From contig CAYGEH010000001.1 of the NCBI GenBank assembly GCA_964348895.1, forward strand, positions 246,610 through 310,609: 64,000 nt of DNA. Direction: 5' to 3'. Made by a program: the position numbers and the translations under genes. The DNA comes from an uncultured Gammaproteobacteria bacterium. Lineage in GTDB: Bacteria > Patescibacteriota > Microgenomatia > 0-14-0-10-38-17. The notes beneath the pieces are model-generated. The model saw only the letters and a list, made by a program, of their open reading frames with translations. It searched no databases and was not told the origin of the DNA. Below are positions 4,427 through 54,667 of the stretch, piece after piece (within the stretch, counting starts at the first letter, position 1; the number at the start of each line of letters is the position of its first letter).

Positions 4427-4502
4427 TGGTGCGCCTGCTTGGATTTGAACCAAGGACATCTACCTTATAAGAGTAGCGCTCTAACCACTGAGCTACAGGC
4501 GC
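4427..4502 (-). tRNA. tRNA-Ile with anticodon UAU (AUA-decoding), 76 nt with encoded CCA
   Basis: Hand-folded cloverleaf: 7-bp acceptor stem GCGCCTG/CAGGCGC, D-stem GCTC/GAGC, anticodon stem CTACT/GGTAG, loop CTTATAA (U33, anticodon TAT, A37), T-stem CTTGG/CCAAG with TTCAAAT loop, discriminator A, CCA. Strong similarity to canonical tRNA-Ile(GAU) except at position 34. Confidence 0.8.
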
Positions 4503-4563: not shown

Positions 4564-6894
4564 TTATAGTCTTGCTCTTTTGGCAATTTCTGCTCCGACC
4601 AAAGCCTTATCTCGACCATATTTCAAGCGAGAAAGCTCAACAATGTTTTTGGCTAAATCCCAATTGTCCAGGGTTTTTTCTTTTACCATGTCTTTAGTTA
4701 AATCAAGAGAAAAAGGTGGCACAGGTTCGTTATTAACAATTGTTTTGATATAAGCATTATATCTTTCAATATTAAGAAGATCGTTTTCGGAAAAGTCTGG
4801 CTGAAACTCATGTTGAAGATAAGAAGCATCGGCCACTCCTACCCGAAAAGAAACCAAGGTGCCAACATTACCAAAAACAGCATTCTTAACTTCTTCTTCC
4901 ATTTGGCCAATAAACTGATTTGCCACTGTTAGGTTAAGACGATACTTTCGTGCTTCCGATAAAATTTGGGCAAAGTCTGGAGTGGCAAAGTTCTGAAATT
5001 CATCAACATAGAGATAAAAATCGCGTCGATTGTCTTCTGACACATCTTGTCGGCTCATTGCCGCAATTAACAATTTTGGCACTAAAACTAGGCCTAAAAA
5101 AGAAGAGTTCTCTTCCCCAATCTTGCCCTTAGCCAAATTAATCAACAAAATCTTGCCCTCGTCCATTGCTTGTCTGAAATCAAAAGCAGAGCGGGACTGA
5201 CCGATAATATTGCGCATCGCGGCGTCAGTTACAAATCGGCCAAACTTAGAAACAATGTAGTCTAACACTTCACTTTTGTGAAAATCACTGGTTTGGGCAA
5301 TTTGATCCGTCCAATATCGTCTAACCATTGGGTCGCTTACTTTGGGTAAAAGCTCCCGCACATACGAAGCATCAGTTAAGACCCGAACCACCTCAACAAA
5401 AGTTGCTCCAGGCTCCGTCATTACTGTTAACATCGCGTTTCTAATTGCGTGTTCAAAGCGAGGACCGATAATCCCAGTCTTATAGGGATCGTAAAGCTTA
5501 TACATTAGGTTAATAATTGAGGAGGCGACAAAATTTTTCTGTTCCTCAGTATAGGTTTCCAACAAATTAAGCCCCATTGGCCGACTAGTATCAGAAGGAT
5601 CAAAATAAATAACATCCTCGGCTCGTTCTGGGGGGATTCTGGGCAAAATTTTCTCAATTGTATCGTGGGGATCAATAAAACAAACCCCCTTACCCTCTTC
5701 AATGTCTTGAACAATCATTTGTTTTAACAGCTCTGATTTTCCCGTTCCAGTTTTTCCAATAATATAAATGTGACGGCGCCGATCGTCTTCGGTTAAAGAA
5801 ACCGGTCTTATTTCTCCTCGATAAACACTCCGACCCAAGTAAAGACCAGTGCGAGAAACCTCGGGAGGAACTGGGGCCCTTTTAGCGTTAAGCCAAGCAA
5901 TATTTGGGGTTATCACTGTTTTGTTGGGAAAATGAAAAATAGTTGCTAGTTCTTCTGAGTTAAGAATAATTTTATTGCCAAATCGTGACCAAAGTGGCCA
6001 ATAGCGATAAATAAAATTAATCATAAAGCCTCTTTTCCACCAAACCTTCTTAGTTTTAAGTCCGTTTTGATCCGAATTAAATTGCGATAGAGCGCTTTTA
6101 ATTGAAGATAAATGAGCCTTAGCCTGATCAATGTTTTTCGAACAAACAACCACCCTTAGCTCCACCTCAAACCCAGGTTTACTACATTTAATTTCAATTT
6201 TCTCTAAAGCCTTGCTATCAATTTTGAATTCCGCCTTTTCTGGATCAGCCTCTTTCTTTTTGGTAGAAGACAGAAATGATCTACCTAGTTTCTGCCACTT
6301 ACTGCCAAGGGGGGAAACTAAAATTTGAATCGCAATTCCTTCACCTTCAACCAGTTTAGACAGGGTTGAGGTTAAAGAAGATAAGGGATCAACAGAGAAA
6401 TCTTGATAAGTTTTAATCGGATAAAAGGGTGAGCTTTTAAACTCAAAGGCGGAGTAAACCACTTTTCCCTCTTTGGAAAAAATATTATATTCATCAATTC
6501 TCTTAATCACCGCCGAAGAATAAAGACCATAAATTTGTCGCTCTAAAAGATCAATTTTATTTTGAGGAATAACAAAATAAAACTTAATGCTGTCTGGAGT
6601 CCCAACAATTTCAGCGCTAAAAAAAAATTTTGGTTTTAGGTTTCCCCCCGTTTTTAGTGAGTGAAGATTGGCAAATAATTGTTCGGCGGCGTCAATTTTA
6701 ATTTCGTTTTCTCGAGGCAAAATTACCTGAAGCAAAACTAAGTCTAGTGAATATTTTTCTCGATTTCTTTCTCGCCAAAGTAAAAACAAAGCATAGCCCA
6801 GCAAAAATAAAACCCCCAAGCAGAGCAGAGTTATCACTCCTAAAACAAGAGAGCGAATTACTAAATAAACAAGATCGTTTAGGTTTTCAATCAT
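4564..6894 (-). CDS. Membrane-anchored P-loop ATPase of the TraD/TraG/VirD4 type IV secretion coupling-protein family (TrwB_AAD_bind-like)
   Basis: N-terminal TM helices, Walker A IIGKTGTGKSE, Walker B-like YLYVDEFQNF. Size and architecture typical of T4SS/conjugative coupling proteins. Confidence 0.55.
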   Translation of the reverse strand: MIENLNDLVYLVIRSLVLGVITLLCLGVLFLLGYALFLLWRERNREKYSLDLVLLQVILPRENEIKIDAAEQLFANLHSLKTGGNLKPKFFFSAEIVGTPDSIKFYFVIPQNKIDLLERQIYGLYSSAVIKRIDEYNIFSKEGKVVYSAFEFKSSPFYPIKTYQDFSVDPLSSLTSTLSKLVEGEGIAIQILVSPLGSKWQKLGRSFLSSTKKKEADPEKAEFKIDSKALEKIEIKCSKPGFEVELRVVVCSKNIDQAKAHLSSIKSALSQFNSDQNGLKTKKVWWKRGFMINFIYRYWPLWSRFGNKIILNSEELATIFHFPNKTVITPNIAWLNAKRAPVPPEVSRTGLYLGRSVYRGEIRPVSLTEDDRRRHIYIIGKTGTGKSELLKQMIVQDIEEGKGVCFIDPHDTIEKILPRIPPERAEDVIYFDPSDTSRPMGLNLLETYTEEQKNFVASSIINLMYKLYDPYKTGIIGPRFEHAIRNAMLTVMTEPGATFVEVVRVLTDASYVRELLPKVSDPMVRRYWTDQIAQTSDFHKSEVLDYIVSKFGRFVTDAAMRNIIGQSRSAFDFRQAMDEGKILLINLAKGKIGEENSSFLGLVLVPKLLIAAMSRQDVSEDNRRDFYLYVDEFQNFATPDFAQILSEARKYRLNLTVANQFIGQMEEEVKNAVFGNVGTLVSFRVGVADASYLQHEFQPDFSENDLLNIERYNAYIKTIVNNEPVPPFSLDLTKDMVKEKTLDNWDLAKNIVELSRLKYGRDKALVGAEIAKRARL

Positions 6895-7384: not shown

Positions 7385-8113
7385 TTAAAAATCACCGCTA
7401 GTTTTAGGCAGAATTGATTGTGCCACCACCAGTAAAGATTCTAGCTTCTGACTACTAAAGGGAGATAAATTGTTGAACTTTGCCTTAAGACAATTTTGGG
7501 GTAAAAATTTTTGTAATCGCCAAACTAGGCTGTTGGGGTCGCCTCCGTTTTCTAGGGTCAAATCTTTTATTTCTTCAGCTAAAACAATCAGATTCTTTTT
7601 GTTGTGAATTGTTGGCACAAGAGTAGTTCGCAATTGATAGTTTAGCCCACTTGTAATAACCAGCCCCAGCGACTGGGCAACTTTTTCATAACTAATTTCT
7701 GTCATTAAGGCGTAGTTTTCTTTGTTTGATTTTATATCTAGGGCAACAAAATCAAGCAATTTACCACGAATCAGGGCCTCTAAAACCTCTGGTCTTCCCC
7801 CATTAGTATCAATTTTAAGCAAAAATCCCAAATCTTTGATTTTACGACAAAAGGAAATTAGATCTGGTTGAAGGGTTGGCTCTCCTCCAGTAAGACAAAC
7901 TCCGTCTAAAATTTTTTGACGCTTATTTAAAAATTCAAAGAAATCTTTTTCTTTAATTTCAACCAAAGAAGACTGAGCAAATCTTTTGCGAGAAACCAAG
8001 TCTTTATTGTGACAATAAGGACAGAAAAAATTACAACCAACAGTAAAAACAGCACAAGCAACTCTGTTGGGATAGTCAACTAGAGTTGTTTTTTGAAGAC
8101 CACCCAAAATCAC
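7385..8113 (-). CDS. nrdG: Anaerobic ribonucleoside-triphosphate reductase activating protein (radical SAM)
   Basis: CNFFCPYCHN CxxxCxxC radical-SAM cluster motif near the N-terminus. Sits downstream of nrdD. Confidence 0.85.
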   Translation of the reverse strand: MILGGLQKTTLVDYPNRVACAVFTVGCNFFCPYCHNKDLVSRKRFAQSSLVEIKEKDFFEFLNKRQKILDGVCLTGGEPTLQPDLISFCRKIKDLGFLLKIDTNGGRPEVLEALIRGKLLDFVALDIKSNKENYALMTEISYEKVAQSLGLVITSGLNYQLRTTLVPTIHNKKNLIVLAEEIKDLTLENGGDPNSLVWRLQKFLPQNCLKAKFNNLSPFSSQKLESLLVVAQSILPKTSGDF

Positions 8114-8223: not shown

Positions 8224-8364
8224 TCAAGCTTGATACTCTTTTCTTAGCTGATATTCCGCCACTTTTCCTTCATTCCACTGACCCACTGGTCGTAAATAAC
8301 CAACAACTCGAGAATAAACTTCACATGGGGTTCGATTTTTTTGAGTCATCTTCTTTTTTGTCAT
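8224..8364 (-). CDS. Stand-alone 46-aa peptide carrying the NrdD C-terminal glycyl-radical motif (MTKKKMTQKNRTPCEVYSRVVGYLRPVGQWNEGKVAEYQLRKEYQA)
   Basis: Matches the class III RNR C-terminal signature RVxGYLxxxxxWNxGKxxExxxR. Own ATG with AAGGA RBS. Separated from the nrdD stop by 87 nt that carry stops in all three frames. Below the ORF-track size cutoff. Confidence 0.55.
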   Translation of the reverse strand: MTKKKMTQKNRTPCEVYSRVVGYLRPVGQWNEGKVAEYQLRKEYQA

Positions 8365-8451
8365 AATTATCACCGTCCTTGTTTTAGTAAAAAAGCTAAA
8401 TAAGTTTTTGAAAAACTAAGCCTGCTTATGGTTTATTTTTTTCAAAAAACA

Positions 8452-10572
8452 TTACTTTTTCTGATAACCTATCTCCTCGTCACATTTAGGACAAAACTGC
8501 CACTCCCCCGCCAAATAACCATGCTTGGGACAAACTGAGAAAGTTGGCGTAATGGAAAAATAAGGCATTTTATAATTGGCTGTTACTTTTTGTAACAAGT
8601 TTTTAACGCTTTTAGTGTCGGGCAAACTTTCTCCCAAAAATCCATGAATCACTGTTCCGCCACTATATTTACGTTGAAGTTCGTCCTGATGGTCAAGAGC
8701 CTCAAACAGATCAGTGGTGTAATCAACTGGTAAATGGGTAGAGTTAGTATAAAAAGGAGCCTCGCCTTCCTTTTGATATCTTTCTTCGTTGGCGCAAACC
8801 ATTTTGGGAAATTGCTCTTTATCTAGTTTAGCGAAACGATAGGCGGTGCTCTCGGCTGGGGTCGCCTCAAGGTTAAACATTTCTCCCGTTTCTTGTTGGT
8901 AAATTAAAATTTTTTCCCTCATATAGTCCATTACTTCTAAAGCAAATTCTCGACCATTTTGGCTGGCAATGTCTTCCCCCATCAAATTAACTAAAGCCTC
9001 ATTCATCCCATTAATACCAATAGTGTTGAAATGATTTCGCCAATAAACTCCGTTACGCTGATAAATATCAGACAAATAATAACGACAATAAGGATAAAGT
9101 CCGCTGTGAGTAAATTCCTCTACCGCTTCTCTTTTAATCACCAAAGATTCTTTCGCCAAATCCATTAATCGTCCTAAAATAGAAAAGAATCTTCGTTTAG
9201 CGAAACCCTCGCTTCTTGATTCTGTTTTAGCCAGAAATCCAATTCGGGGTAAATTGATGGTCACTACTCCTAAAGAACCAGTTAGGGGATTGGCAGCAAA
9301 TAGTCCTCCCCGACGCCTTAGTTCTCGATTGTCTAGCTGTAGACGACAACACATACTTCTAACATCGTCAGGGTCCATATCCGAATTAACAAAATTAGAA
9401 AAATAAGGAATTCCATATTTTCTGGTCATCTCCCAGACTGGCTCCAAGTTTTTGTTGTCCCAATCAAAGTTTTTAGTAATTGAATAGGTGGGAATCGGAA
9501 AAGTAAAAACTCGTCCCTGAGAGTCTCCCTCCATCATTGTTTCAGCAAAGGCTCGATTAATCATGTCCATCTCTTTTTGAAAGTTTTTATATTTATCTTT
9601 GGTTGGCTTGCCACCAATGATGACCACTTCTTCACCCACCATTTTTGTCGGATGAATATCTAAAGAAATATTAGAAAATGGGGTTTGAAATCCTACTCGA
9701 GTCGGAACATTCATATTAAAAACAAACTCCTGTAGAGCTTGCTTTGTTTGTTTATAAGTTAGTCCGTCATAAGCAATAAACGGCGCCAAATAAGTATCAA
9801 AGTTAGACAAAGCAACTGCCCCCGCCACTTCTCCCTGAATGGTGTACATAAAATTAACAATTTGGCCCAGGGCAGAAGAAAGATGTTTGGGGGGAGCACT
9901 ATTAACTTTACCGGAAACACCGCCAAAACCCTTAATTAAAAAATCTTTAAGATCCCAGCCTGTACAATAGGCTGAAAGAGAAGACAGGTCGTGAATATGA
10001 AGGTCTCCTTGTCGATGAGCTTTTCTTACTTCTCTGGAATAAATTTTATTAAGCCAAAAATTAGCGGAAATAATACTAGCGACATGGTTATTCAACCCCT
10101 GAAGAGAATAAGTCATATTGGCATTCTCTTTGACTCGCCAATCGCCTCGATCAAGATATTTCTCAGTTAACTCGTCGGCATCTACTAAGCTACTAATGCT
10201 TCTTAGTTTTTGGTGAAGCTGACGATAGAGGGTAAAGGCACTATAAACTTCTTCGTGACCACGCTCAAGCAGGGTTTTTTCAACAATGTCCTGTACTTGT
10301 TCAACCTCAGGAATAAGTGAAGAGTTAAATCGCTTTTCTAGTTCCGCCACTACTTCTTGGGTTAAACGACGAATCTCTTCTTGGTCGTCGCTGCCTGAAG
10401 CCTTAAAGGCGCCCCTGATTGCCCGCTCAATTTTGCTTGGACTGAAGGCGACTATTCGTCCGCTTCTTTTTTTTATTTTACTAATTTTTGATTTAATTTT
10501 ACCTCTAACCATAATTAAAACCAAAAAAACCCATTCAAGATAATAAGAAATGGCCCTCTTTTTCAAAGACAA
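8452..10572 (-). CDS. nrdD: Anaerobic ribonucleoside-triphosphate reductase (class III) large subunit with N-terminal ATP-cone; C-terminal Zn-ribbon present but glycyl-radical segment absent. Likely true start at 10509 (MVRGKIK...)
   Basis: ATP-cone (RSGRIVAFSPSKIERAI), NrdD core, C-terminal CPKHG...CPKCD Zn-ribbon. The track start is probably too far upstream. Confidence 0.9.
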   Translation of the reverse strand: MSLKKRAISYYLEWVFLVLIMVRGKIKSKISKIKKRSGRIVAFSPSKIERAIRGAFKASGSDDQEEIRRLTQEVVAELEKRFNSSLIPEVEQVQDIVEKTLLERGHEEVYSAFTLYRQLHQKLRSISSLVDADELTEKYLDRGDWRVKENANMTYSLQGLNNHVASIISANFWLNKIYSREVRKAHRQGDLHIHDLSSLSAYCTGWDLKDFLIKGFGGVSGKVNSAPPKHLSSALGQIVNFMYTIQGEVAGAVALSNFDTYLAPFIAYDGLTYKQTKQALQEFVFNMNVPTRVGFQTPFSNISLDIHPTKMVGEEVVIIGGKPTKDKYKNFQKEMDMINRAFAETMMEGDSQGRVFTFPIPTYSITKNFDWDNKNLEPVWEMTRKYGIPYFSNFVNSDMDPDDVRSMCCRLQLDNRELRRRGGLFAANPLTGSLGVVTINLPRIGFLAKTESRSEGFAKRRFFSILGRLMDLAKESLVIKREAVEEFTHSGLYPYCRYYLSDIYQRNGVYWRNHFNTIGINGMNEALVNLMGEDIASQNGREFALEVMDYMREKILIYQQETGEMFNLEATPAESTAYRFAKLDKEQFPKMVCANEERYQKEGEAPFYTNSTHLPVDYTTDLFEALDHQDELQRKYSGGTVIHGFLGESLPDTKSVKNLLQKVTANYKMPYFSITPTFSVCPKHGYLAGEWQFCPKCDEEIGYQKK

Positions 10573-10793: not shown

Positions 10794-13730
10794 TTATTCC
10801 CAAGCATCACAGACAATTTTAAAAGGACAGAAATCACACCAGAATCCAGCCTTAGGAGCAAAATCACTTTGATTAATCACCTCTACTGTCTTGATGAGTG
10901 CTTTTTTGGCCTTGTCTAGCTCTAGGGCTGTTTTCTTGACTGATATCCGCTGGCCTTCTTTTAAAAAATAAAAAGTCCCTGTTAAATAGTCGGGGTTAGC
11001 CCCCAAAATACCAGGGTCGGCGGCGGCCAAAAGATATAAGTTCATTTGTAGGCTTTTATCGGCTTGTTTTTGGTCTATCGCCTGACTGGTTTTATAGTCA
11101 ATAATCTCCCAAGCGTTATTTTCTTTGTCTACTCGATCAAAAATACCAGTAATTTTAACCTTTTCCGTCAAAAAAAAGTTAAACTTTCTTTCCAAAAAAA
11201 GTGGCTTCTTTTTTTGCTTAAAATCTTCTCGATAAAAACGAGCAAGCATTTTCTTGCCTTCGTTAAAAAACTTTTCTTCCTGAAAACGAGAAGAATAACC
11301 AAAAGAAAGCCAATTTTTTTGATAACAAGAAAATAAGTCTTTTAAGCTGGGGTTGCTGTTTTTTACCTGTTGATAAAATTGAGAAAGTGTCCGATGAATC
11401 GCCGTCCCAAAACTCTGGGCACCATTTGGGGTCGCCGGAATTTTTTGTCGATATTGGTAATGATATTGGGCTGGACAATGTTCAAAAGCGGTAATTTGAG
11501 AAAAAGACAAGTGGTTAATTTTTTTGGGCGAGGAAACATCTTCTTCTTTGTTTTCAATCGGCTTGAATCTTAATAAGGACAATTGGCCAGTCTTTTCTTC
11601 TGGTTGAACATTAATTTCGACTTTAGTTAGGGCCTGATAAACAAAGGGAGAAATCTTTCTGCTTCGTTTTTCTTCGCCATAAAGCTTTGAGGCGGTTAGA
11701 AACAATTTGTTTTTGGCTCGCGTCATACCAACGTAGAAAAGTCGCCTCTCTTCTTGATCATGATAATTTCCTTGAGGTAAAATTTCCTTGATTAACTCAT
11801 CTGGAATGGGAATTTGTTCTCGGCGACCATAAACAGGAAATCTTCCCGCCACGAGATTAACTAAAAAAACTATCTCAAACTCTAGGCCTTTGGCTGAATG
11901 AACCGTAAGAAGATTAACCTTGTTTTCTTGCAACCAATCATCATTATCAACCGAAGGCGATTCTCCTAGCTCAAGAGCCACCTTGATCCAATCTACCACA
12001 GCCCCAACGCTGGCATCTTCATGGCTTATTTCATATCGGAAAAGGCGATCAAAGAAGTAAGCGATGTTCTCTACTCTTCTTTCTTCTCGAGGAGACTTGA
12101 CCTTAACTAGCTCTTTCAACAAACCAGATTCTTCCAGATAGTAATAAAGAACTTGCCCAGCACTTTTTTCTTTACTCAACTCTAAGTGTCGATTGATCAT
12201 TTTTGTCATTTGGGTTAATTTCTGCCTTGCTTCCTCAGACAAGGATATTGACGGCAAACCTCCCTCAACTTTACTAGTCTTAGACTGACCCAAAACTAAC
12301 TCAATTGCCCCAAATAAGCTCAAATTAACCTTTCTCGCCCAGCTTGTCAGCTCAACTAAATCTCGACCAGAAAGACTAAGGGGCGAACGACCTAAAATCC
12401 GATAACAGGCTTGATCGTGATGAGGATCAGTTAATAATAATAAATAGGCAATCAGATTTTTTATTTCTTCTTGACGAAATAATTGCCCCGGTCCTAAAAA
12501 CTGATAAGGAATGCTCTTTTGAAGTAAAGCCTTCATAAAAGGAATGGCATGATTATTAGCCCTAACTAAAATGGCAAAATCACTCCAAGACAGGCTTGGT
12601 CGTTTTTCTTTTTCTTCCTTGATAATTCGAGCCACTTCTTCGGCTTCTTCCTCAACCTTCTTGGTATAAACAAAGCTAACTGGGCAACCCAAACCATTAA
12701 CGCTTACTAGGTTTTTATCAATTCCAAGCTTTACTTCTAGGGTATCAGGATTATTGTGTTGAATTAGTTGATAGGCACTATTTAGAATTGTTTGAGTAGA
12801 GCGATAATTTTCAATTAAAACCACCGATTTAGCCAAGGGATAGTCGCTCATAAATCGCAAAACATTAGAAACAGCTGCTCCCCTAAACCGATAAATTGAC
12901 TGAGAATCATCGGCCACAACCGAGAGCTGTGGTTTAGTCAGGGGAGGGGCTAGGAGCTTAATTAGTTGATACTGGGCGATATTGGTGTCTTGAAACTCAT
13001 CAACTAAGAAATATTTAAATTTTTTTCGATAATAAGCCAAAACATTGGGGCGCTTTCTAAATAATTTCAAGGTGTGGGCAATTAAATCAGCAAAATCAAA
13101 CCAGCCCTCTTTTTGTTTTAATCTCTCGTATTCCTGATAAGCAGCAGCTAGTTCCAAATATTTTTCTTGCTCGGCTTTTTCCTCTTTTTTGATTTCTGTT
13201 TTTTGATTTTTAAGGGCCAATTGCTTTGCCCAATCAAAATACTGCTTTGGGGTAACATCTTCATCCTTTAAACGAGAAAAGTGAGTCAATAAGCCAACCA
13301 CAAACTTGTTCGGGTTTCCCAGGGGGCGAAAATAGTCTAGCCTCAAATCAAAAAGATGTTTCAGCAAGAATTGAACTGACTCTGATTGGGTCATTAAATT
13401 AAATCCAGGATCTAAGCCAATTTGAGTCGCCTCGTCTTTTAAAACTCGATCACAAAAAGCATGAAAGGTCATAATCCAAGTGTCGGTATAGCCTAGGGGA
13501 AGGGCAACGTCAATTCGCTCCTCCATTTCAAGAGCCGCTTTTTCAGTAAAAGTCAGGGCCAAAATTTCTTCTGGTCGAGCCAGTTTGTTGGCAACTAAAT
13601 ATTTTATTTTCTCGGTAATTACCGTAGTCTTCCCAGTTCCAGCTCCAGCAATAATTAAAAGAGGTCCAGACAAATGTTCAACTGCTTGTCTTTGGGCTAG
13701 ATTTAATTCTTTTTTTTCTTTATTAGCCAC
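10794..13730 (-). CDS. UvrD/PcrA-family SF1 helicase fused to a C-terminal PD-(D/E)xK RecB/Cas4-like nuclease domain with Cys cluster (AddA-like helicase-nuclease)
   Basis: Walker A AGAGTGKTT at the N-terminus, UvrD helicase motifs. C-terminal FEHCPxxY...IIDYKTS...CDFCPFKIVC pattern of the Cas4/AddB-type Fe-S nuclease. Confidence 0.8.
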   Translation of the reverse strand: MANKEKKELNLAQRQAVEHLSGPLLIIAGAGTGKTTVITEKIKYLVANKLARPEEILALTFTEKAALEMEERIDVALPLGYTDTWIMTFHAFCDRVLKDEATQIGLDPGFNLMTQSESVQFLLKHLFDLRLDYFRPLGNPNKFVVGLLTHFSRLKDEDVTPKQYFDWAKQLALKNQKTEIKKEEKAEQEKYLELAAAYQEYERLKQKEGWFDFADLIAHTLKLFRKRPNVLAYYRKKFKYFLVDEFQDTNIAQYQLIKLLAPPLTKPQLSVVADDSQSIYRFRGAAVSNVLRFMSDYPLAKSVVLIENYRSTQTILNSAYQLIQHNNPDTLEVKLGIDKNLVSVNGLGCPVSFVYTKKVEEEAEEVARIIKEEKEKRPSLSWSDFAILVRANNHAIPFMKALLQKSIPYQFLGPGQLFRQEEIKNLIAYLLLLTDPHHDQACYRILGRSPLSLSGRDLVELTSWARKVNLSLFGAIELVLGQSKTSKVEGGLPSISLSEEARQKLTQMTKMINRHLELSKEKSAGQVLYYYLEESGLLKELVKVKSPREERRVENIAYFFDRLFRYEISHEDASVGAVVDWIKVALELGESPSVDNDDWLQENKVNLLTVHSAKGLEFEIVFLVNLVAGRFPVYGRREQIPIPDELIKEILPQGNYHDQEERRLFYVGMTRAKNKLFLTASKLYGEEKRSRKISPFVYQALTKVEINVQPEEKTGQLSLLRFKPIENKEEDVSSPKKINHLSFSQITAFEHCPAQYHYQYRQKIPATPNGAQSFGTAIHRTLSQFYQQVKNSNPSLKDLFSCYQKNWLSFGYSSRFQEEKFFNEGKKMLARFYREDFKQKKKPLFLERKFNFFLTEKVKITGIFDRVDKENNAWEIIDYKTSQAIDQKQADKSLQMNLYLLAAADPGILGANPDYLTGTFYFLKEGQRISVKKTALELDKAKKALIKTVEVINQSDFAPKAGFWCDFCPFKIVCDAWE

Positions 13731-49897: not shown

Positions 49898-51016
49898 TTA
49901 CTCTTTCTGTTCCGAAGTTCTAATTTGTCTTAATTCTTCCTCTAAAACCTTCTTTTCGTCTAATTGGCGCTTGATAGAGAGAATAAGTAAGATAACAATT
50001 GCCAGAGCCAGTAAAACAGCCAAGATTATCTTCCAAGGCATAACCCAAAAGAACAGGGTGTGGGTAATGGTTTGACCGTCTCCATAAAGAGCGCTTAGGG
50101 TGGCCGAGTAGCGACCAAAGTGCCATCTACCACCAAATTCGGCTTCATATTGTCTTTGGGCTTGGGGGAGAATGTTCTGTCTTTCAAGTCGAACTAGACT
50201 GGGTTGCTCTAAACCCCAAGTATTTCTCACTTCTATCTCTAGGATAGGCTTGATGTGAACTGTGCTTAAATTTAGGATTCGGGCCACAAAGGGAACTGGG
50301 CCGTATTCAAATAAAACTCTGGGGGTAGAGAATTCGGTAATATTAGCGCTGTATTCTACCGGACCCTCAACTGTAACCAGGTTTAGTGAGGCGACATTAA
50401 GATTAACAAACGCCCCAGTAGTGATTTGATCAGTTTGACCAACTAAGTCAGTCTCGCCAGATAAAAGAGCGGTGACGGCAAAGTAAAATCCTCCCGGTTC
50501 GGCATTTTGGGGAATAACAATAGTATAGGCAACGTCAACTTGCTCTCCTGCTTCTAGGGTAACTCTATTGGGATTAATTACTACCCAGTTGTGAGAATCG
50601 GGTAGAGGGTCGTCGTCTACTTCAACACCGCCAGTATCACCAGAGGCAATAAAAGGTGAAGCCCGTAAAACTAGGGTTACCGTTCTATCGCTTTGATTAA
50701 GAAGCGACATCTGATAAGAGTTGGCGCTTCCTCGAGGTAACTCAAGTTCTCTTACTGGTGGACTAATAGTGATTAAACTACTTAACCCTCCCTGCTGTTC
50801 TGGGGCGGCTACTGGCCGAGGCTCAGCATAGGGAGTCATTGTCGCCTCTTTGGTAACTTCAACCACCTCTCTGGTTCTGGCTGGTTGATTGGTCTCTGTT
50901 TCTTCTTGAGCGAGGGTGACTTTAGTCAAAGCAAAGCCTAAGGCTAGGAAGCCAAGCAGAATGATTACTAGGGCAGTTTTTTTAATCATTTGTTTTTTTA
51001 ATAACGACCAGTACAA
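49898..51016 (-). CDS. Surface protein, copy 1: cleavable N-terminal signal, beta-rich ectodomain, single C-terminal TM anchor and charged tail (KRQLDEKKVLEEELRQIRTSEQKE)
   Basis: 372 aa; 19-nt overlap with the upstream 411-aa gene (translational coupling). Architecture of type-I surface-anchored proteins. Confidence 0.6.
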   Translation of the reverse strand: MYWSLLKKQMIKKTALVIILLGFLALGFALTKVTLAQEETETNQPARTREVVEVTKEATMTPYAEPRPVAAPEQQGGLSSLITISPPVRELELPRGSANSYQMSLLNQSDRTVTLVLRASPFIASGDTGGVEVDDDPLPDSHNWVVINPNRVTLEAGEQVDVAYTIVIPQNAEPGGFYFAVTALLSGETDLVGQTDQITTGAFVNLNVASLNLVTVEGPVEYSANITEFSTPRVLFEYGPVPFVARILNLSTVHIKPILEIEVRNTWGLEQPSLVRLERQNILPQAQRQYEAEFGGRWHFGRYSATLSALYGDGQTITHTLFFWVMPWKIILAVLLALAIVILLILSIKRQLDEKKVLEEELRQIRTSEQKE

Positions 51017-52233
51017 AGGTAAGAGACAACATTAGAATAAACGCCGGCTTCCTGTAGTCCAGAAATCTCAACCCGATAAACAATGTAGGCCTGGCCGTTA
51101 GGATCAGCTCCACCAACACCATTGGCTGGAGCGTTGTGGCTCAAGATAGCCTCGTAAAGATTTGATAGCCCAGCAAACCTGGCTCCAGTAAAGCGGTTAC
51201 CGGCTCCAGCTCCAGCAAGGTCGTCAAGGGCAAGATCAGTTGTTCCATAACCAAGGTGACCATAGGTGTCAAGGGAGCCAGGGGTACCCAAAGGAGCAGC
51301 CCAAGTGTCAGGAGAAGTGTTGTCTTGGAGAACTCCATTTCTAAAAGTGTTAATGGTTGCCCCGCCCGCGGCAGTAAGATCAGAATACTGTCTGACGGCA
51401 AAGTGGAATCCATTGGCCCCATTAGTGCTAACCCTGATCATCTGTCCTGATTGAGAGGAGGCGCCGCTGTTGATAACTCCAAAGGGAATCGCGGTTGCTG
51501 TCGTGGCAAATCCGGCTGCTCCATAAGTGTTGCCCAGGGTGTTAAAGTTTTCGGCGGGGGCAACTCCAGCCACCTGACAAGAGAGAGTCGCCTTTACTTC
51601 GGCGGTAATGGTAACTGCGTCAATAATGGCCGCTCTCACCGAGGCAGTGTCTATGGTCACGGCAGAAGCGTTCTGGGTTTGATATTCAATTAAGTAGGTA
51701 TCGGCAGTCCCCGCCGCAGCCACCTTGGTTGGATTCTGAACATCGTTTAAGCCACCAGCCGCTCCATCCCCCATGGTGATTTCAACAAATTGGTTGGCAG
51801 CAAGACCAGAGCAGGCTCCTGAAGGAGCCAGGGTTAGGGTAATTATTTCATCAGCATTGTTAATGGCCACTCCAACTACACCCGCCGCTGGAGTGGCAGC
51901 AAGGGTACAAGTGGTCGGGCTAGACATATCAGCGTTAACACTGTGTCTCATCGTCATATCGGTAAAAGAATGGCCTACTCCCAAGTCAAATGGAGCTCCG
52001 GCTCCAGGAGCAAGGTCGATGACAATTCTGCCTGAGGTGGGAACAACAAGGGTGGTTCTAAAATAGTGGACGTGTCTAGTGTTGGCAAAAAGAGGGCGAG
52101 AATCAGAGATTGTAATTTGGGCGTTTCTCAAGCTACTAAAAGAGGCACTAAGGTTAGGGTAGGTTAAGAACAGGACCAGAGTCAGCAAGAAAAACAAGCT
52201 TTTTTTAGAGAAGAAGTTTTTGATCATTGGCAA
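50998..52233 (-). CDS. Secreted Ala/Gly/Thr-rich protein, copy 1 (signal peptide; GC-rich relative to the window)
   Basis: 411 aa, N-terminal signal MPMIKNFFSKKSLFFLLTLVLFLTYPNLSASF, low-complexity A/G/T-rich body. Confidence 0.6.
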   Translation of the reverse strand: MPMIKNFFSKKSLFFLLTLVLFLTYPNLSASFSSLRNAQITISDSRPLFANTRHVHYFRTTLVVPTSGRIVIDLAPGAGAPFDLGVGHSFTDMTMRHSVNADMSSPTTCTLAATPAAGVVGVAINNADEIITLTLAPSGACSGLAANQFVEITMGDGAAGGLNDVQNPTKVAAAGTADTYLIEYQTQNASAVTIDTASVRAAIIDAVTITAEVKATLSCQVAGVAPAENFNTLGNTYGAAGFATTATAIPFGVINSGASSQSGQMIRVSTNGANGFHFAVRQYSDLTAAGGATINTFRNGVLQDNTSPDTWAAPLGTPGSLDTYGHLGYGTTDLALDDLAGAGAGNRFTGARFAGLSNLYEAILSHNAPANGVGGADPNGQAYIVYRVEISGLQEAGVYSNVVSYLCTGRY

Positions 52234-52331: not shown

Positions 52332-53450
52332 TTACTCTTTCTGTTCCGAAGTTCTAATTTGTCTTAATTCTTCCTCTAAAACCTTCTTTTCGTCTAATTG
52401 GCGCTTGATAGAGAGAATAAGTAAGATAACAATTGCCAGAGCCAGTAAAACAGCCAAGATTATCTTCCAAGGCATAACCCAAAAGAACAGGGTGTGGGTA
52501 ATGGTTTGACCGTCTCCATAAAGAGCGCTTAGGGTGGCCGAGTAGCGACCAAAGTGCCATCTACCACCAAATTCGGCTTCATATTGTCTTTGGGCTTGGG
52601 GGAGAATGTTCTGTCTTTCAAGTCGAACTAGACTGGGTTGCTCTAAACCCCAAGTATTTCTCACTTCTATCTCTAGGATAGGCTTGATGTGAACTGTGCT
52701 TAAATTTAGGATTCGGGCCACAAAGGGAACTGGGCCGTATTCAAATAAAACTCTGGGGGTAGAGAATTCGGTAATATTAGCGCTGTATTCTACCGGACCC
52801 TCAACTGTAACCAGGTTTAGTGAGGCGACATTAAGATTAACAAACGCCCCAGTAGTGATTTGATCAGTTTGACCAACTAAGTCAGTCTCGCCAGATAAAA
52901 GAGCGGTGACGGCAAAGTAAAATCCTCCCGGTTCGGCATTTTGGGGAATAACAATAGTATAGGCAACGTCAACTTGCTCTCCTGCTTCTAGGGTAACTCT
53001 ATTGGGATTAATTACTACCCAGTTGTGAGAATCGGGTAGAGGGTCGTCGTCTACTTCAACACCGCCAGTATCACCAGAGGCAATAAAAGGTGAAGCCCGT
53101 AAAACTAGGGTTACCGTTCTATCGCTTTGATTAAGAAGCGACATCTGATAAGAGTTGGCGCTTCCTCGAGGTAACTCAAGTTCTCTTACTGGTGGACTAA
53201 TAGTGATTAAACTACTTAACCCTCCCTGCTGTTCTGGGGCGGCTACTGGCCGAGGCTCAGCATAGGGAGTCATTGTCGCCTCTTTGGTAACTTCAACCAC
53301 CTCTCTGGTTCTGGCTGGTTGATTGGTCTCTGTTTCTTCTTGAGCGAGGGTGACTTTAGTCAAAGCAAAGCCTAAGGCTAGGAAGCCAAGCAGAATGATT
53401 ACTAGGGCAGTTTTTTTAATCATTTGTTTTTTTAATAACGACCAGTACAA
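52332..53450 (-). CDS. Surface protein with N-signal and C-terminal TM anchor, copy 2 (identical to 49898-51016)
   Basis: Identical translation. Confidence 0.6.
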   Translation of the reverse strand: MYWSLLKKQMIKKTALVIILLGFLALGFALTKVTLAQEETETNQPARTREVVEVTKEATMTPYAEPRPVAAPEQQGGLSSLITISPPVRELELPRGSANSYQMSLLNQSDRTVTLVLRASPFIASGDTGGVEVDDDPLPDSHNWVVINPNRVTLEAGEQVDVAYTIVIPQNAEPGGFYFAVTALLSGETDLVGQTDQITTGAFVNLNVASLNLVTVEGPVEYSANITEFSTPRVLFEYGPVPFVARILNLSTVHIKPILEIEVRNTWGLEQPSLVRLERQNILPQAQRQYEAEFGGRWHFGRYSATLSALYGDGQTITHTLFFWVMPWKIILAVLLALAIVILLILSIKRQLDEKKVLEEELRQIRTSEQKE

Positions 53451-54667
53451 AGGTAAGAGACAACATTAGAATAAACGCCGGCTTCCTGTAGTCCAGAAAT
53501 CTCAACCCGATAAACAATGTAGGCCTGGCCGTTAGGATCAGCTCCACCAACACCATTGGCTGGAGCGTTGTGGCTCAAGATAGCCTCGTAAAGATTTGAT
53601 AGCCCAGCAAACCTGGCTCCAGTAAAGCGGTTACCGGCTCCAGCTCCAGCAAGGTCGTCAAGGGCAAGATCAGTTGTTCCATAACCAAGGTGACCATAGG
53701 TGTCAAGGGAGCCAGGGGTACCCAAAGGAGCAGCCCAAGTGTCAGGAGAAGTGTTGTCTTGGAGAACTCCATTTCTAAAAGTGTTAATGGTTGCCCCGCC
53801 CGCGGCAGTAAGATCAGAATACTGTCTGACGGCAAAGTGGAATCCATTGGCCCCATTAGTGCTAACCCTGATCATCTGTCCTGATTGAGAGGAGGCGCCG
53901 CTGTTGATAACTCCAAAGGGAATCGCGGTTGCTGTCGTGGCAAATCCGGCTGCTCCATAAGTGTTGCCCAGGGTGTTAAAGTTTTCGGCGGGGGCAACTC
54001 CAGCCACCTGACAAGAGAGAGTCGCCTTTACTTCGGCGGTAATGGTAACTGCGTCAATAATGGCCGCTCTCACCGAGGCAGTGTCTATGGTCACGGCAGA
54101 AGCGTTCTGGGTTTGATATTCAATTAAGTAGGTATCGGCAGTCCCCGCCGCAGCCACCTTGGTTGGATTCTGAACATCGTTTAAGCCACCAGCCGCTCCA
54201 TCCCCCATGGTGATTTCAACAAATTGGTTGGCAGCAAGACCAGAGCAGGCTCCTGAAGGAGCCAGGGTTAGGGTAATTATTTCATCAGCATTGTTAATGG
54301 CCACTCCAACTACACCCGCCGCTGGAGTGGCAGCAAGGGTACAAGTGGTCGGGCTAGACATATCAGCGTTAACACTGTGTCTCATCGTCATATCGGTAAA
54401 AGAATGGCCTACTCCCAAGTCAAATGGAGCTCCGGCTCCAGGAGCAAGGTCGATGACAATTCTGCCTGAGGTGGGAACAACAAGGGTGGTTCTAAAATAG
54501 TGGACGTGTCTAGTGTTGGCAAAAAGAGGGCGAGAATCAGAGATTGTAATTTGGGCGTTTCTCAAGCTACTAAAAGAGGCACTAAGGTTAGGGTAGGTTA
54601 AGAACAGGACCAGAGTCAGCAAGAAAAACAAGCTTTTTTTAGAGAAGAAGTTTTTGATCATTGGCAA
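53432..54667 (-). CDS. Secreted Ala/Gly/Thr-rich protein, copy 2 (identical to 50998-52233)
   Basis: Identical translation. Confidence 0.6.
   Translation of the reverse strand: MPMIKNFFSKKSLFFLLTLVLFLTYPNLSASFSSLRNAQITISDSRPLFANTRHVHYFRTTLVVPTSGRIVIDLAPGAGAPFDLGVGHSFTDMTMRHSVNADMSSPTTCTLAATPAAGVVGVAINNADEIITLTLAPSGACSGLAANQFVEITMGDGAAGGLNDVQNPTKVAAAGTADTYLIEYQTQNASAVTIDTASVRAAIIDAVTITAEVKATLSCQVAGVAPAENFNTLGNTYGAAGFATTATAIPFGVINSGASSQSGQMIRVSTNGANGFHFAVRQYSDLTAAGGATINTFRNGVLQDNTSPDTWAAPLGTPGSLDTYGHLGYGTTDLALDDLAGAGAGNRFTGARFAGLSNLYEAILSHNAPANGVGGADPNGQAYIVYRVEISGLQEAGVYSNVVSYLCTGRY

Follow-up and report, generated by a model that had tools for sequence, protein, structure and literature searches.

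Class III ribonucleotide reductase (RNR) is the oxygen-sensitive enzyme that makes DNA building blocks in anaerobes, and in every characterized NrdD that we know of, the glycyl-radical loop is the covalent C terminus of the catalytic chain. Radical loops that stand alone have been found for a different enzyme, GrcA/YfiD of Escherichia coli and Y06I of phage T4 being autonomous glycyl-radical cofactors for pyruvate formate-lyase (PFL). RNR catalytic subunits may also come from two genes, and the class I NrdA of phage Aeh1 is split by mobE, a homing-endonuclease gene. The class II enzyme of Pseudomonas aeruginosa is divided into NrdJa and NrdJb (Crona et al. 2015, as cited in PMC9669993). According to a 2026 review, formate lyases are the only enzymes for which radical proteins serving as spare parts are known, and we found no description of a split NrdD in the open-access literature; split RNRs, known for class II and for phage class I, have thus apparently never been described for class III. 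Here, we analyzed a 64,000-nt stretch of a contig from a small-genome Patescibacteriota bacterium (CAYGEH010000001.1, positions 246,610 to 310,609; hereafter, the window), in which the NrdD radical loop is encoded apart from the catalytic core, by an open reading frame (ORF) of 46 amino acids (aa).

The locus lies on the minus strand in the order nrdD core, small ORF, nrdG. The core (8452..10512, stop codon TAA at 8452..8454) encodes 686 aa from an ATG at 10512; its frame is open further up to a TTG at 10572 (8452..10572, 706 aa), and the ATG (MVRGKIK...) is the likelier start. The 686-aa product, 100% identical to database protein P0122, carries near its N terminus an ATP-cone (PF03477, 10210..10479, residues 32 to 121 of the 706-aa ORF, E = 3.4e-21), the allosteric activity domain of these enzymes. 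Its last folded element is a Zn-ribbon, CPKH-x9-CPKC (8482..8532; C661, H664, C674, and C677 in the 686-aa numbering). As an earlier note on this DNA had claimed, the protein then stops without an RVxGY segment, 9 residues past the ribbon (...CPKHGYLAGEWQFCPKCDEEIGYQKK, followed by TAA), these residues forming the tail DEEIGYQKK (8455..8481), the basic end of which varies in length in relatives.

The missing segment is found 87 nt downstream, in a separately initiated ORF of 46 aa plus stop codon (8224..8364, MTKKKMTQKNRTPCEVYSRVVGYLRPVGQWNEGKVAEYQLRKEYQA) that we propose to encode a radical-bearing subunit. It has its own ATG, preceded at 4 nt by a sequence resembling a Shine-Dalgarno (SD) motif (AAGGACGGTGAT, 8369..8380), and would be 49 aa long if started at a GTG at 8373. 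The noncoding spacer (8365..8451) has stops in all three frames. Both the separate ORF and a linker too interrupted for a simple frameshift had been reported in the earlier note, correctly in each case. The peptide consists of a basic leader, MTKKKMTQKNRTP (residues 1 to 13), and an NrdD glycyl-radical segment, CEVYSRVVGYLRPVGQWNEGKVAEYQLRKEYQA; an example of its tryptic fragments is VVGYLRPVGQWNEGK. Gly22 of RVVG22Y (GGT codon at 8299..8301) is the predicted radical site, which we take from the established role of the RVxGY motif in NrdD (Gly580 in T4). The gene for the radical S-adenosylmethionine (radical-SAM) activating enzyme, nrdG (7385..8113, 242 aa), lies 110 nt 3' of the small ORF.

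We compared both ORFs with curated profiles. They tile the NrdD models end to end and so together make up one complete NrdD with nothing missing. Against the NrdD equivalog PRK08270 (684 positions), the large ORF covers positions 3 to 651 (985 bits, cutoff of 548) and the small one positions 642 to 682; against Pfam NRDD (PF13597, 562 positions), the large ORF covers positions 1 to 529 (598.7 bits, E = 1.5e-179) and the small one positions 529 to 562 (36.4 bits, cutoff of 26.2). The peptide therefore does align to NrdD C termini, as the earlier claim demanded, and the break in NrdD comes after the Zn-ribbon and before the glycyl-radical loop. The large ORF also passes the cutoff of TIGR02487 (506 bits versus 326), and the nrdG product matches TIGR02495 (NrdG2, 176 bits, cutoff of 131) and Pfam Radical_SAM and Fer4_12. 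The small ORF matched NrdD models only, with no hit to the PFL-type Gly_radical family (PF01228) at E ≤ 0.1. Pfam, NCBIfam, and PHROG have no curated family for the peptide as a stand-alone protein, and a PDB sequence search with its 46 aa gave no match at E ≤ 1 because the peptide is too short.

The expected residues are conserved in an 84-sequence alignment (A3): C661 and C674 of the predicted Zn-ribbon are invariant, C677 is at least 90% conserved, and position 664 is H or C in relatives. G708 and Y709 (numbering of the joined sequence) are at least 90% conserved, and an invariant pair, Cys388-Cys389, may be the thiyl-radical site. Sequence and fold mark the core as a bona fide NrdD: it passes the family cutoffs, its Zn-ribbon comes before the radical loop, and the NrdG activase is encoded nearby. 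It fails a single defining feature, as RVVGY is in the operon and not in cis with the catalytic barrel. We also considered whether Cys14, conserved in the peptide, might link both chains by a shared Zn ion and rejected the idea, as the core already has four ligands (C, H/C, C, and C) and the peptide Cys is replaced by T, A, or N in some relatives.

We then modeled core and peptide, joined head to tail as one chain, with AlphaFold2 on alignment A3. The model reached a mean pLDDT (predicted local distance difference test) of 90.3 and a pTM (predicted template-modeling score) of 0.81, and the radical segment (joined residues 701 to 732, i.e., peptide residues 15 to 46) was confidently placed (pLDDT of 87 to 96). 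The only weak C-terminal stretch was 681 to 700, with a minimum (<50) at 687 to 689, at the K686/M687 junction, and the peptide leader (residues 1 to 13) fell in a low-confidence region (residues 687 to 700, pLDDT from <50 to 76). An earlier run on a shallow and too-similar alignment of 50 sequences (A2) had given a pLDDT of 65 and a C terminus below 50. With Foldseek, the joined model matched every solved class III RNR, with E values down to 2e-32 and target-normalized TM-scores up to 0.77 (Prevotella copri 8P23, Streptococcus thermophilus 9D3X, Thermotoga maritima 4U3E/4COI, and T4 1H79), followed by other glycyl-radical enzymes, and it superposes on all solved NrdDs, ten-stranded barrel and finger loop included. 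In the model, both pieces are compatible with the canonical NrdD fold, and the break probably sits in a disordered linker.

We propose, with a probability of about 0.8, that this locus encodes a class III RNR in two genes, a genuine arrangement that evolution has maintained, with the radical peptide acting in trans. A radical domain supplied in trans had been suggested in the earlier note and is the functional reading that the sequences support best. In family, fold, ATP-cone, Zn-ribbon, RVxGY loop, and adjacent radical-SAM activase, the system would resemble canonical NrdD plus NrdG (T4, E. coli, T. maritima, and P. copri; 1H79, 4COI/4U3E, and 8P23), from which it differs in having its loop on a separate 46-aa product and in a core that ends in DEEIGY plus basic residues. 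With GrcA/YfiD and Y06I it shares a small stand-alone radical-loop protein that is the expected target of the activase and would insert into the barrel in trans, and with GrcA a disordered N-terminal leader (here, a region of low model confidence) before an ordered radical segment. The comparison with GrcA, also made in the earlier note, holds to that extent and fails beyond it: GrcA is of the PFL type (PF01228), has ~127 aa, is encoded away from pflB, and is optional since PFL keeps its own domain, whereas the window peptide is of the NrdD type, has 46 aa, and lies between nrdD and nrdG. As the partner core is without a radical segment, the peptide must be an obligate subunit. As for NrdJa/NrdJb and the Aeh1 NrdA, the likeness lies in neighboring genes that each encode a part of the RNR catalytic subunit, the two parts coming together again as an active enzyme; those cases concern other classes and positions, neither detaches the element that harbors the radical, and, unlike in Aeh1, no mobile gene is present in the 87-nt spacer of the window.

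To see how NrdD is arranged in relatives, we scanned one genome per species, which returned 80 NrdD loci, and located the Zn-ribbon and the RVxGY segment in each. There were 78 informative loci; three others end at a contig edge. A tblastn recheck that allowed for F/Y/H variants of the WN motif recovered the Gly-motif in every locus extending far enough. We found that nrdD was split in 36 of the 78 informative loci and contiguous in 42, so the split that the earlier note had seen once recurs in related genomes. An ORF for the radical segment came after every truncated core, and in 35/36 split loci nrdG lay on the same strand within 600 nt downstream. Three further loci that we checked individually (L083, on a 277-kb contig, L084, and L090) also have the order nrdD-peptide-nrdG; the L090 contig bears genes for TonB-dependent receptors and thus belongs to a diderm outside the candidate phyla radiation (CPR).

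Two types can be told apart among the split loci. In type A (23 loci, the window among them, from Shapirobacteria, Woesebacteria and relatives, and scattered others), cores end in CPKCD-EEIG-Y/W/F plus a basic tail, and in the small ORFs, of 43 to 60 aa, a basic leader precedes R-T/Q-x-CEV[YF]SR[IV]VGY. Type B (13 loci, monophyletic and Nealsonbacteria-like) has small ORFs of ~100 to 120 aa with an extra Zn-ribbon of their own ahead of the radical segment; loci listed under this type are L042 to L046, L048, L051, L054, L057, L061, L064, L066, L067, and L072. Split loci cluster without being monophyletic on a neighbor-joining (NJ) tree of the cores. Three contiguous genes (L010, L016, and L018) nest within the type-A clade, L023 is split and its sister L022 contiguous, and L019 to L021, L027/L033, and L078 are further separate cases, which implies several independent splits, some refusions, or both. 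One locus (L055) has two nrdD genes, a contiguous one with RVVGK instead of RVVGY and a split type-A pair.

Linker lengths hint at how the break arose. The distance from the last Zn-ribbon Cys to the radical Gly has a median of 14 residues in contiguous genes, and a few contiguous relatives (L022, L038, and the P0157 type) have a basic linker of 29 to 42 residues that opens with a D-x-E-[IL]-G motif. The corresponding sum in split genes, of core tail plus peptide leader, is ~30 to 45 residues. Nearly all truncated cores of the window's clade (98 cluster representatives) carry D-[EKQ]-E-I-G-[YWF], and the DEEIGY-plus-basic tail is absent from the short-linker contiguous enzymes. Linker expansion thus likely came first and interruption after it. 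A K-rich insertion with a nonsense codon, as offered in the earlier note, is in this respect a fair account of the likely origin, the expanded basic linkers of L022, L038, and P0157 being still contiguous. In L027, L033, and L090, core tail (e.g., EEINKEIERLKTMLNKMEEKKAV) and peptide leader (MTREEILRKIKELEEKKKQIKGTP...) both look like heptad-type amphipathic helices, a pattern that suggests a coiled coil acting as a noncovalent tether; the tails of P0280, P0319, P0322, P0360, P0377, P0380, and P0387 are placed with this family.

The arrangement is conserved and abundant in sequence databases, with hundreds of uncultured microbes having it. A search with the 49-aa form of the ORF yielded 481 stand-alone proteins of 43 to 85 aa that carry PF13597, many of them on contigs up to 467 kb. 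They group by leader into several families, namely a K-rich one, a "MSPIETKR" one, and one of ~60 aa whose leader is helical and whose tail is often rich in Cys. In the split family of L027, L033, and L090, many of the peptides likewise end in Cys-rich tails (CxC, CC, or CGC). We also classified the 150 most similar 50%-identity representatives in a library of 1.8 billion proteins, judged on the core sequences alone: 65 have the Gly-motif pattern and 4 more have variant motifs, ~49 stop shortly past the Zn-ribbon without a radical segment, ~20 more end at a variant CPYPHTEE... tail, and the remaining dozen or so are fragments or unclassified.

A stand-alone peptide might instead be an optional spare part that rescues O2-damaged enzyme, as GrcA/YfiD does, with the main radical domain located elsewhere. 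Stand-alone radical-domain proteins that repair PFL are established, one relative (L063) has a contiguous NrdD and an additional radical-domain ORF downstream, and phage or mobile contexts harbor orphan peptides of the NrdD type. Yet the window core has no radical segment of its own, and neither have 98 of the 120 closest NrdD cluster representatives (68 to 100% identity; the other 22 are contiguous), which leaves nothing to spare. We found no second segment encoding RVxGY within 4 kb of any type-A split locus, and the peptide is of the NrdD type and not of the PFL type. We therefore regard an optional role as unlikely.

The loci that invite this comparison deserve a description of their own. 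The contiguous NrdD of L063 has its own radical loop (end at ~5019), and the extra ORF of ~90 aa (~5014 to 5281) encodes an additional Zn-ribbon and a second radical loop, in a GrcA-like manner. On the NJ tree, L063 belongs to a contiguous-gene group that is sister to the 13-locus type-B clade, in which the core loop is lost; this suggests that type B arose by duplication followed by loss of the cis copy. Three orphan peptides of the NrdD type (62 to 71 aa, helical leader) have no nrdD next to them: P0063 (L081/L082, 4001 to 4198) at a prophage-like border with phage lysozyme, integrase, and NYN genes; P0020 (L091, 3501 to 3689) in a phage-like block, directly 5' of the gene for a head-tail connector; and P0078 (L089, 3501 to 3716) among WYL, DUF2924, and N6/N4-methyltransferase genes. 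They may be spare parts carried by phages and mobile elements, or radical subunits for the host class III RNR, and as such a new kind of auxiliary gene.

We next asked whether recoding might join the two ORFs into one chain, by read-through, frameshifting, slippage on an A run, or a bypass of the T4 gene 60 kind from AAA-AAG to AAA-AAG. The junction would lend itself to such events, being A/T-rich with A7 and T6 runs and having AAA-AAG on both flanks of the gap (just before the core TAA and just after the small-ORF ATG), and the two window ORFs share one reading frame. However, the frame that continues past the core stop meets first a TAA and then a TAG, besides the stops in the other frames. 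In a strain variant (L086), the A run of the spacer is shorter by 1 nt, one small-ORF codon has changed synonymously (GAA>GAG), and two more positions are substituted downstream; the deletion shifts the relative frame of the two ORFs, yet both are intact, so nothing reads across the spacer. All relative frames (0, +1, and +2) occur among type-A loci, where the distance from core stop to small-ORF start ranges from an overlap (−4) to ~300 nt, and among split loci the RVxGY motif lies 10 to 361 nt from the core stop codon.

What is conserved at the junction is a start site. Compared with the closest relatives (cores 86 to 89% identical), the coding sequence is conserved on both sides with mostly third-position changes, and a GGTG..AATT-ATG block is shared by all four of them, the rest of the spacer (41 to ~300 nt) being unalignable. 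The SD-like sequence of the window is positionally equivalent to AGGAGGTGGTGAT (L001), GAGGAGGTGA (L017), and GGGAGGTGTGA (L002); an AGGAGG-like SD stands 3 to 11 nt before the ATG or GTG of 15/21 type-A small ORFs, and several of these ORFs overlap the core stop (ATGA, −4). The RNA fold of the window spacer is not significant (z = −1.3), no Rfam family matches it, and no terminator-like site was found between nrdD and the small ORF. We thus rejected a bypass of the gene 60 type, for which gap length and frame vary too much, even between strains, and a significant stem-loop is lacking, and we consider recoding in general very improbable. The spacers of L001 (6061 to 6364) and L017 (6103 to 6351) are unlike the AT-rich 87 nt of the window, with ~250 to 300 nt and several GC-rich hairpin-like stretches; Rfam gave no match to them save a weak one to RF02671 (Ysr35) in L017 (24 bits versus a gathering score of 428), and they may derive from a miniature inverted-repeat transposable element or a small RNA.

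Alternatively, a nonsense mutation may have broken nrdD and left a decaying pseudogene. Small symbiotic genomes gather broken genes, the small ORF was left uncalled by the gene callers of the Logan and European Nucleotide Archive (ENA) assemblies on L085 and L086, and its protein (P0001, identical to that of the window) is present in the Logan and ENA collections and not at NCBI. Some small ORFs are automatically named "anaerobic ribonucleoside-triphosphate reductase" in GenBank. Selection speaks against decay. The ratio of nonsynonymous to synonymous differences per site (pN/pS) in the 31-codon radical core was 0.24 in split type A, 0.17 in split type B, and 0.23 in contiguous genes, values that are upper bounds, synonymous sites being almost saturated. 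The window and L002 differ by 10.5 changes per 19.7 synonymous sites and 4.5 per 73.3 nonsynonymous sites. The detached segment is hence as constrained as the attached one, which is not what a pseudogene would show. Both halves are strongly conserved, with a bias toward synonymous substitutions equal to that of contiguous genes, the core still scores 985 bits against the NrdD equivalog, nrdG is retained, and the split is the majority state of a large and old clade (identities of 70 to 89%). These observations make a pseudogene highly improbable.

A sequencing or assembly error, which the earlier note had allowed for, did not withstand comparison at the level of assemblies. A homopolymer indel would be conceivable in a stretch with A7 and T6 runs, but with stops in three frames no single indel restores one ORF. 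The identical 686-aa protein was found on nine contigs, and we compared four junctions from independent samples or assemblies: stop codon, spacer, and small ORF are identical to the window in ERR3094287, ERZ27247794, and ERR3094288 and near-identical in SRR34485632 (strain variant L086). Dozens of other genomes have the same architecture, and we treat an artifact as negligibly probable.

An excised element, either a small intron or a split intein restoring one chain by protein trans-splicing, is scarcely credible either: inteins and introns are known to invade NrdD often, and many relatives carry inteins (PF14890/PF14528), but the 87-nt spacer has no conserved sequence, structure, or Rfam match, the 13-aa leader and the 9-aa core tail are far too short for split-intein halves, and neither window ORF has an intein match in Pfam. 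One to three inteins are present in a very large share of the NrdD relatives (1,000 to 1,880 aa; P0128, P0130 to P0134, P0149, and most of P0241 to P0390), and the C-terminal split is found together with inteins within single genes.

The split is thus real and can be reproduced, purifying selection acts on both halves, the initiation signal of the small ORF and the operon are conserved, and the arrangement recurs in many lineages. Several points nevertheless weigh against a two-subunit enzyme. The SD of the window (AAGGAcGGTGAT) is weaker than those of its relatives, and no SD was recognizable in 6/21 type-A small ORFs. In L076 (1900 to 1950), the expected start is an ATA, without ATG, GTG, or TTG, located 5 nt after a perfect AAGGAGGTG; it is either a noncanonical start or a recent mutation. 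The AlphaFold2 model was built on a joined chain and so speaks for compatibility and not for assembly in trans. We infer that the pieces assemble noncovalently, that NrdG activates the peptide, whether free or docked, and that the enzyme is catalytically competent; a second RNR class in the source genome, of which our view spans 64 kb, would relax the need for a working NrdD.

For the two-subunit enzyme, we propose the following mechanism. A single nrdD-peptide-nrdG transcript would be made, the core would be translated to its TAA, and ribosomes would reinitiate at the SD and ATG of the peptide, or, in many relatives, by coupling at overlapping stop and start codons. The radical loop of the peptide would be the substrate of NrdG, which would abstract a hydrogen from Gly22. 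The peptide would then fill the position in the barrel that the covalent C-terminal segment takes in an ordinary NrdD, with docked Gly22 in the role of T4 Gly580, and the radical would be passed to the active-site cysteine. The tether probably differs by lineage: in the window's family, the conserved acidic DEEIGY core tail may face the basic leader of the peptide, in the family of L027, L033, and L090, paired amphipathic helices may serve, and in type B, the peptide's own Zn-ribbon. The break would have fallen in a linker that had first expanded and was basic and probably disordered. A benefit, on which we can only speculate, is that O2 cleavage at the radical glycine would cost a 46-aa "fuse" and not a 686-aa enzyme.

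We also lean, by a narrow balance of probability, toward a broader view in which these loci represent a large and unrecognized branch of natively two-component class III RNRs. Such a branch would combine a core devoid of the radical segment with a subunit of 45 to 120 aa that was detached several times independently and is held by lineage-specific tethers (basic leader, paired amphipathic helices, or extra Zn-ribbon); it would be abundant in Patescibacteria and DPANN archaea and present in at least one non-CPR diderm, and the orphan peptides of phages and mobile elements would act as NrdD spare parts or in the takeover of host deoxynucleoside triphosphate synthesis. If the proposal is true, these peptides would be the first autonomous glycyl-radical cofactors outside formate lyases, and a separate 5-kDa radical loop would extend the exception set by GrcA, the only one known to the general view that glycyl-radical enzymes keep the radical on their own catalytic chain, to the enzyme that supplies anaerobes with DNA precursors. 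A free peptide usable with NrdG would offer a natural system for a long-standing problem, the access of the activase to a glycine buried in the barrel, and would suggest a cheap way of repairing O2 damage in organisms with tiny genomes. Annotation often misses the small ORF, so that nrdD of CPR and DPANN genomes may be mistaken for a truncated or broken gene when metabolism is reconstructed from them.

Other features of the window include, on the minus strand, a tRNA-Ile gene with anticodon TAT (4427 to 4502) and an ORF for a 776-aa coupling-protein ATPase resembling TraG/VirD4/TrwB (4564 to 6894), whose Pfam matches are weak. Directly upstream of nrdD, a 978-aa fusion of a UvrD helicase and a PD-(D/E)XK nuclease is encoded (10794 to 13730, minus strand), and it keeps this position 5' of nrdD in the same-species assemblies L085 to L088. 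Farther away, the minus strand carries a tandem repeat (49898 to 52233 and 52332 to 54667, spacing of 2,434 nt) whose unit comprises two genes without a Pfam match (ORFs of 372 and 411 aa). The two copies of the 372-aa product, which has a hydrophobic segment at its N terminus and a transmembrane-like one at its C terminus, are 100% identical; the repeat is either a very recent duplication or an assembly artifact.

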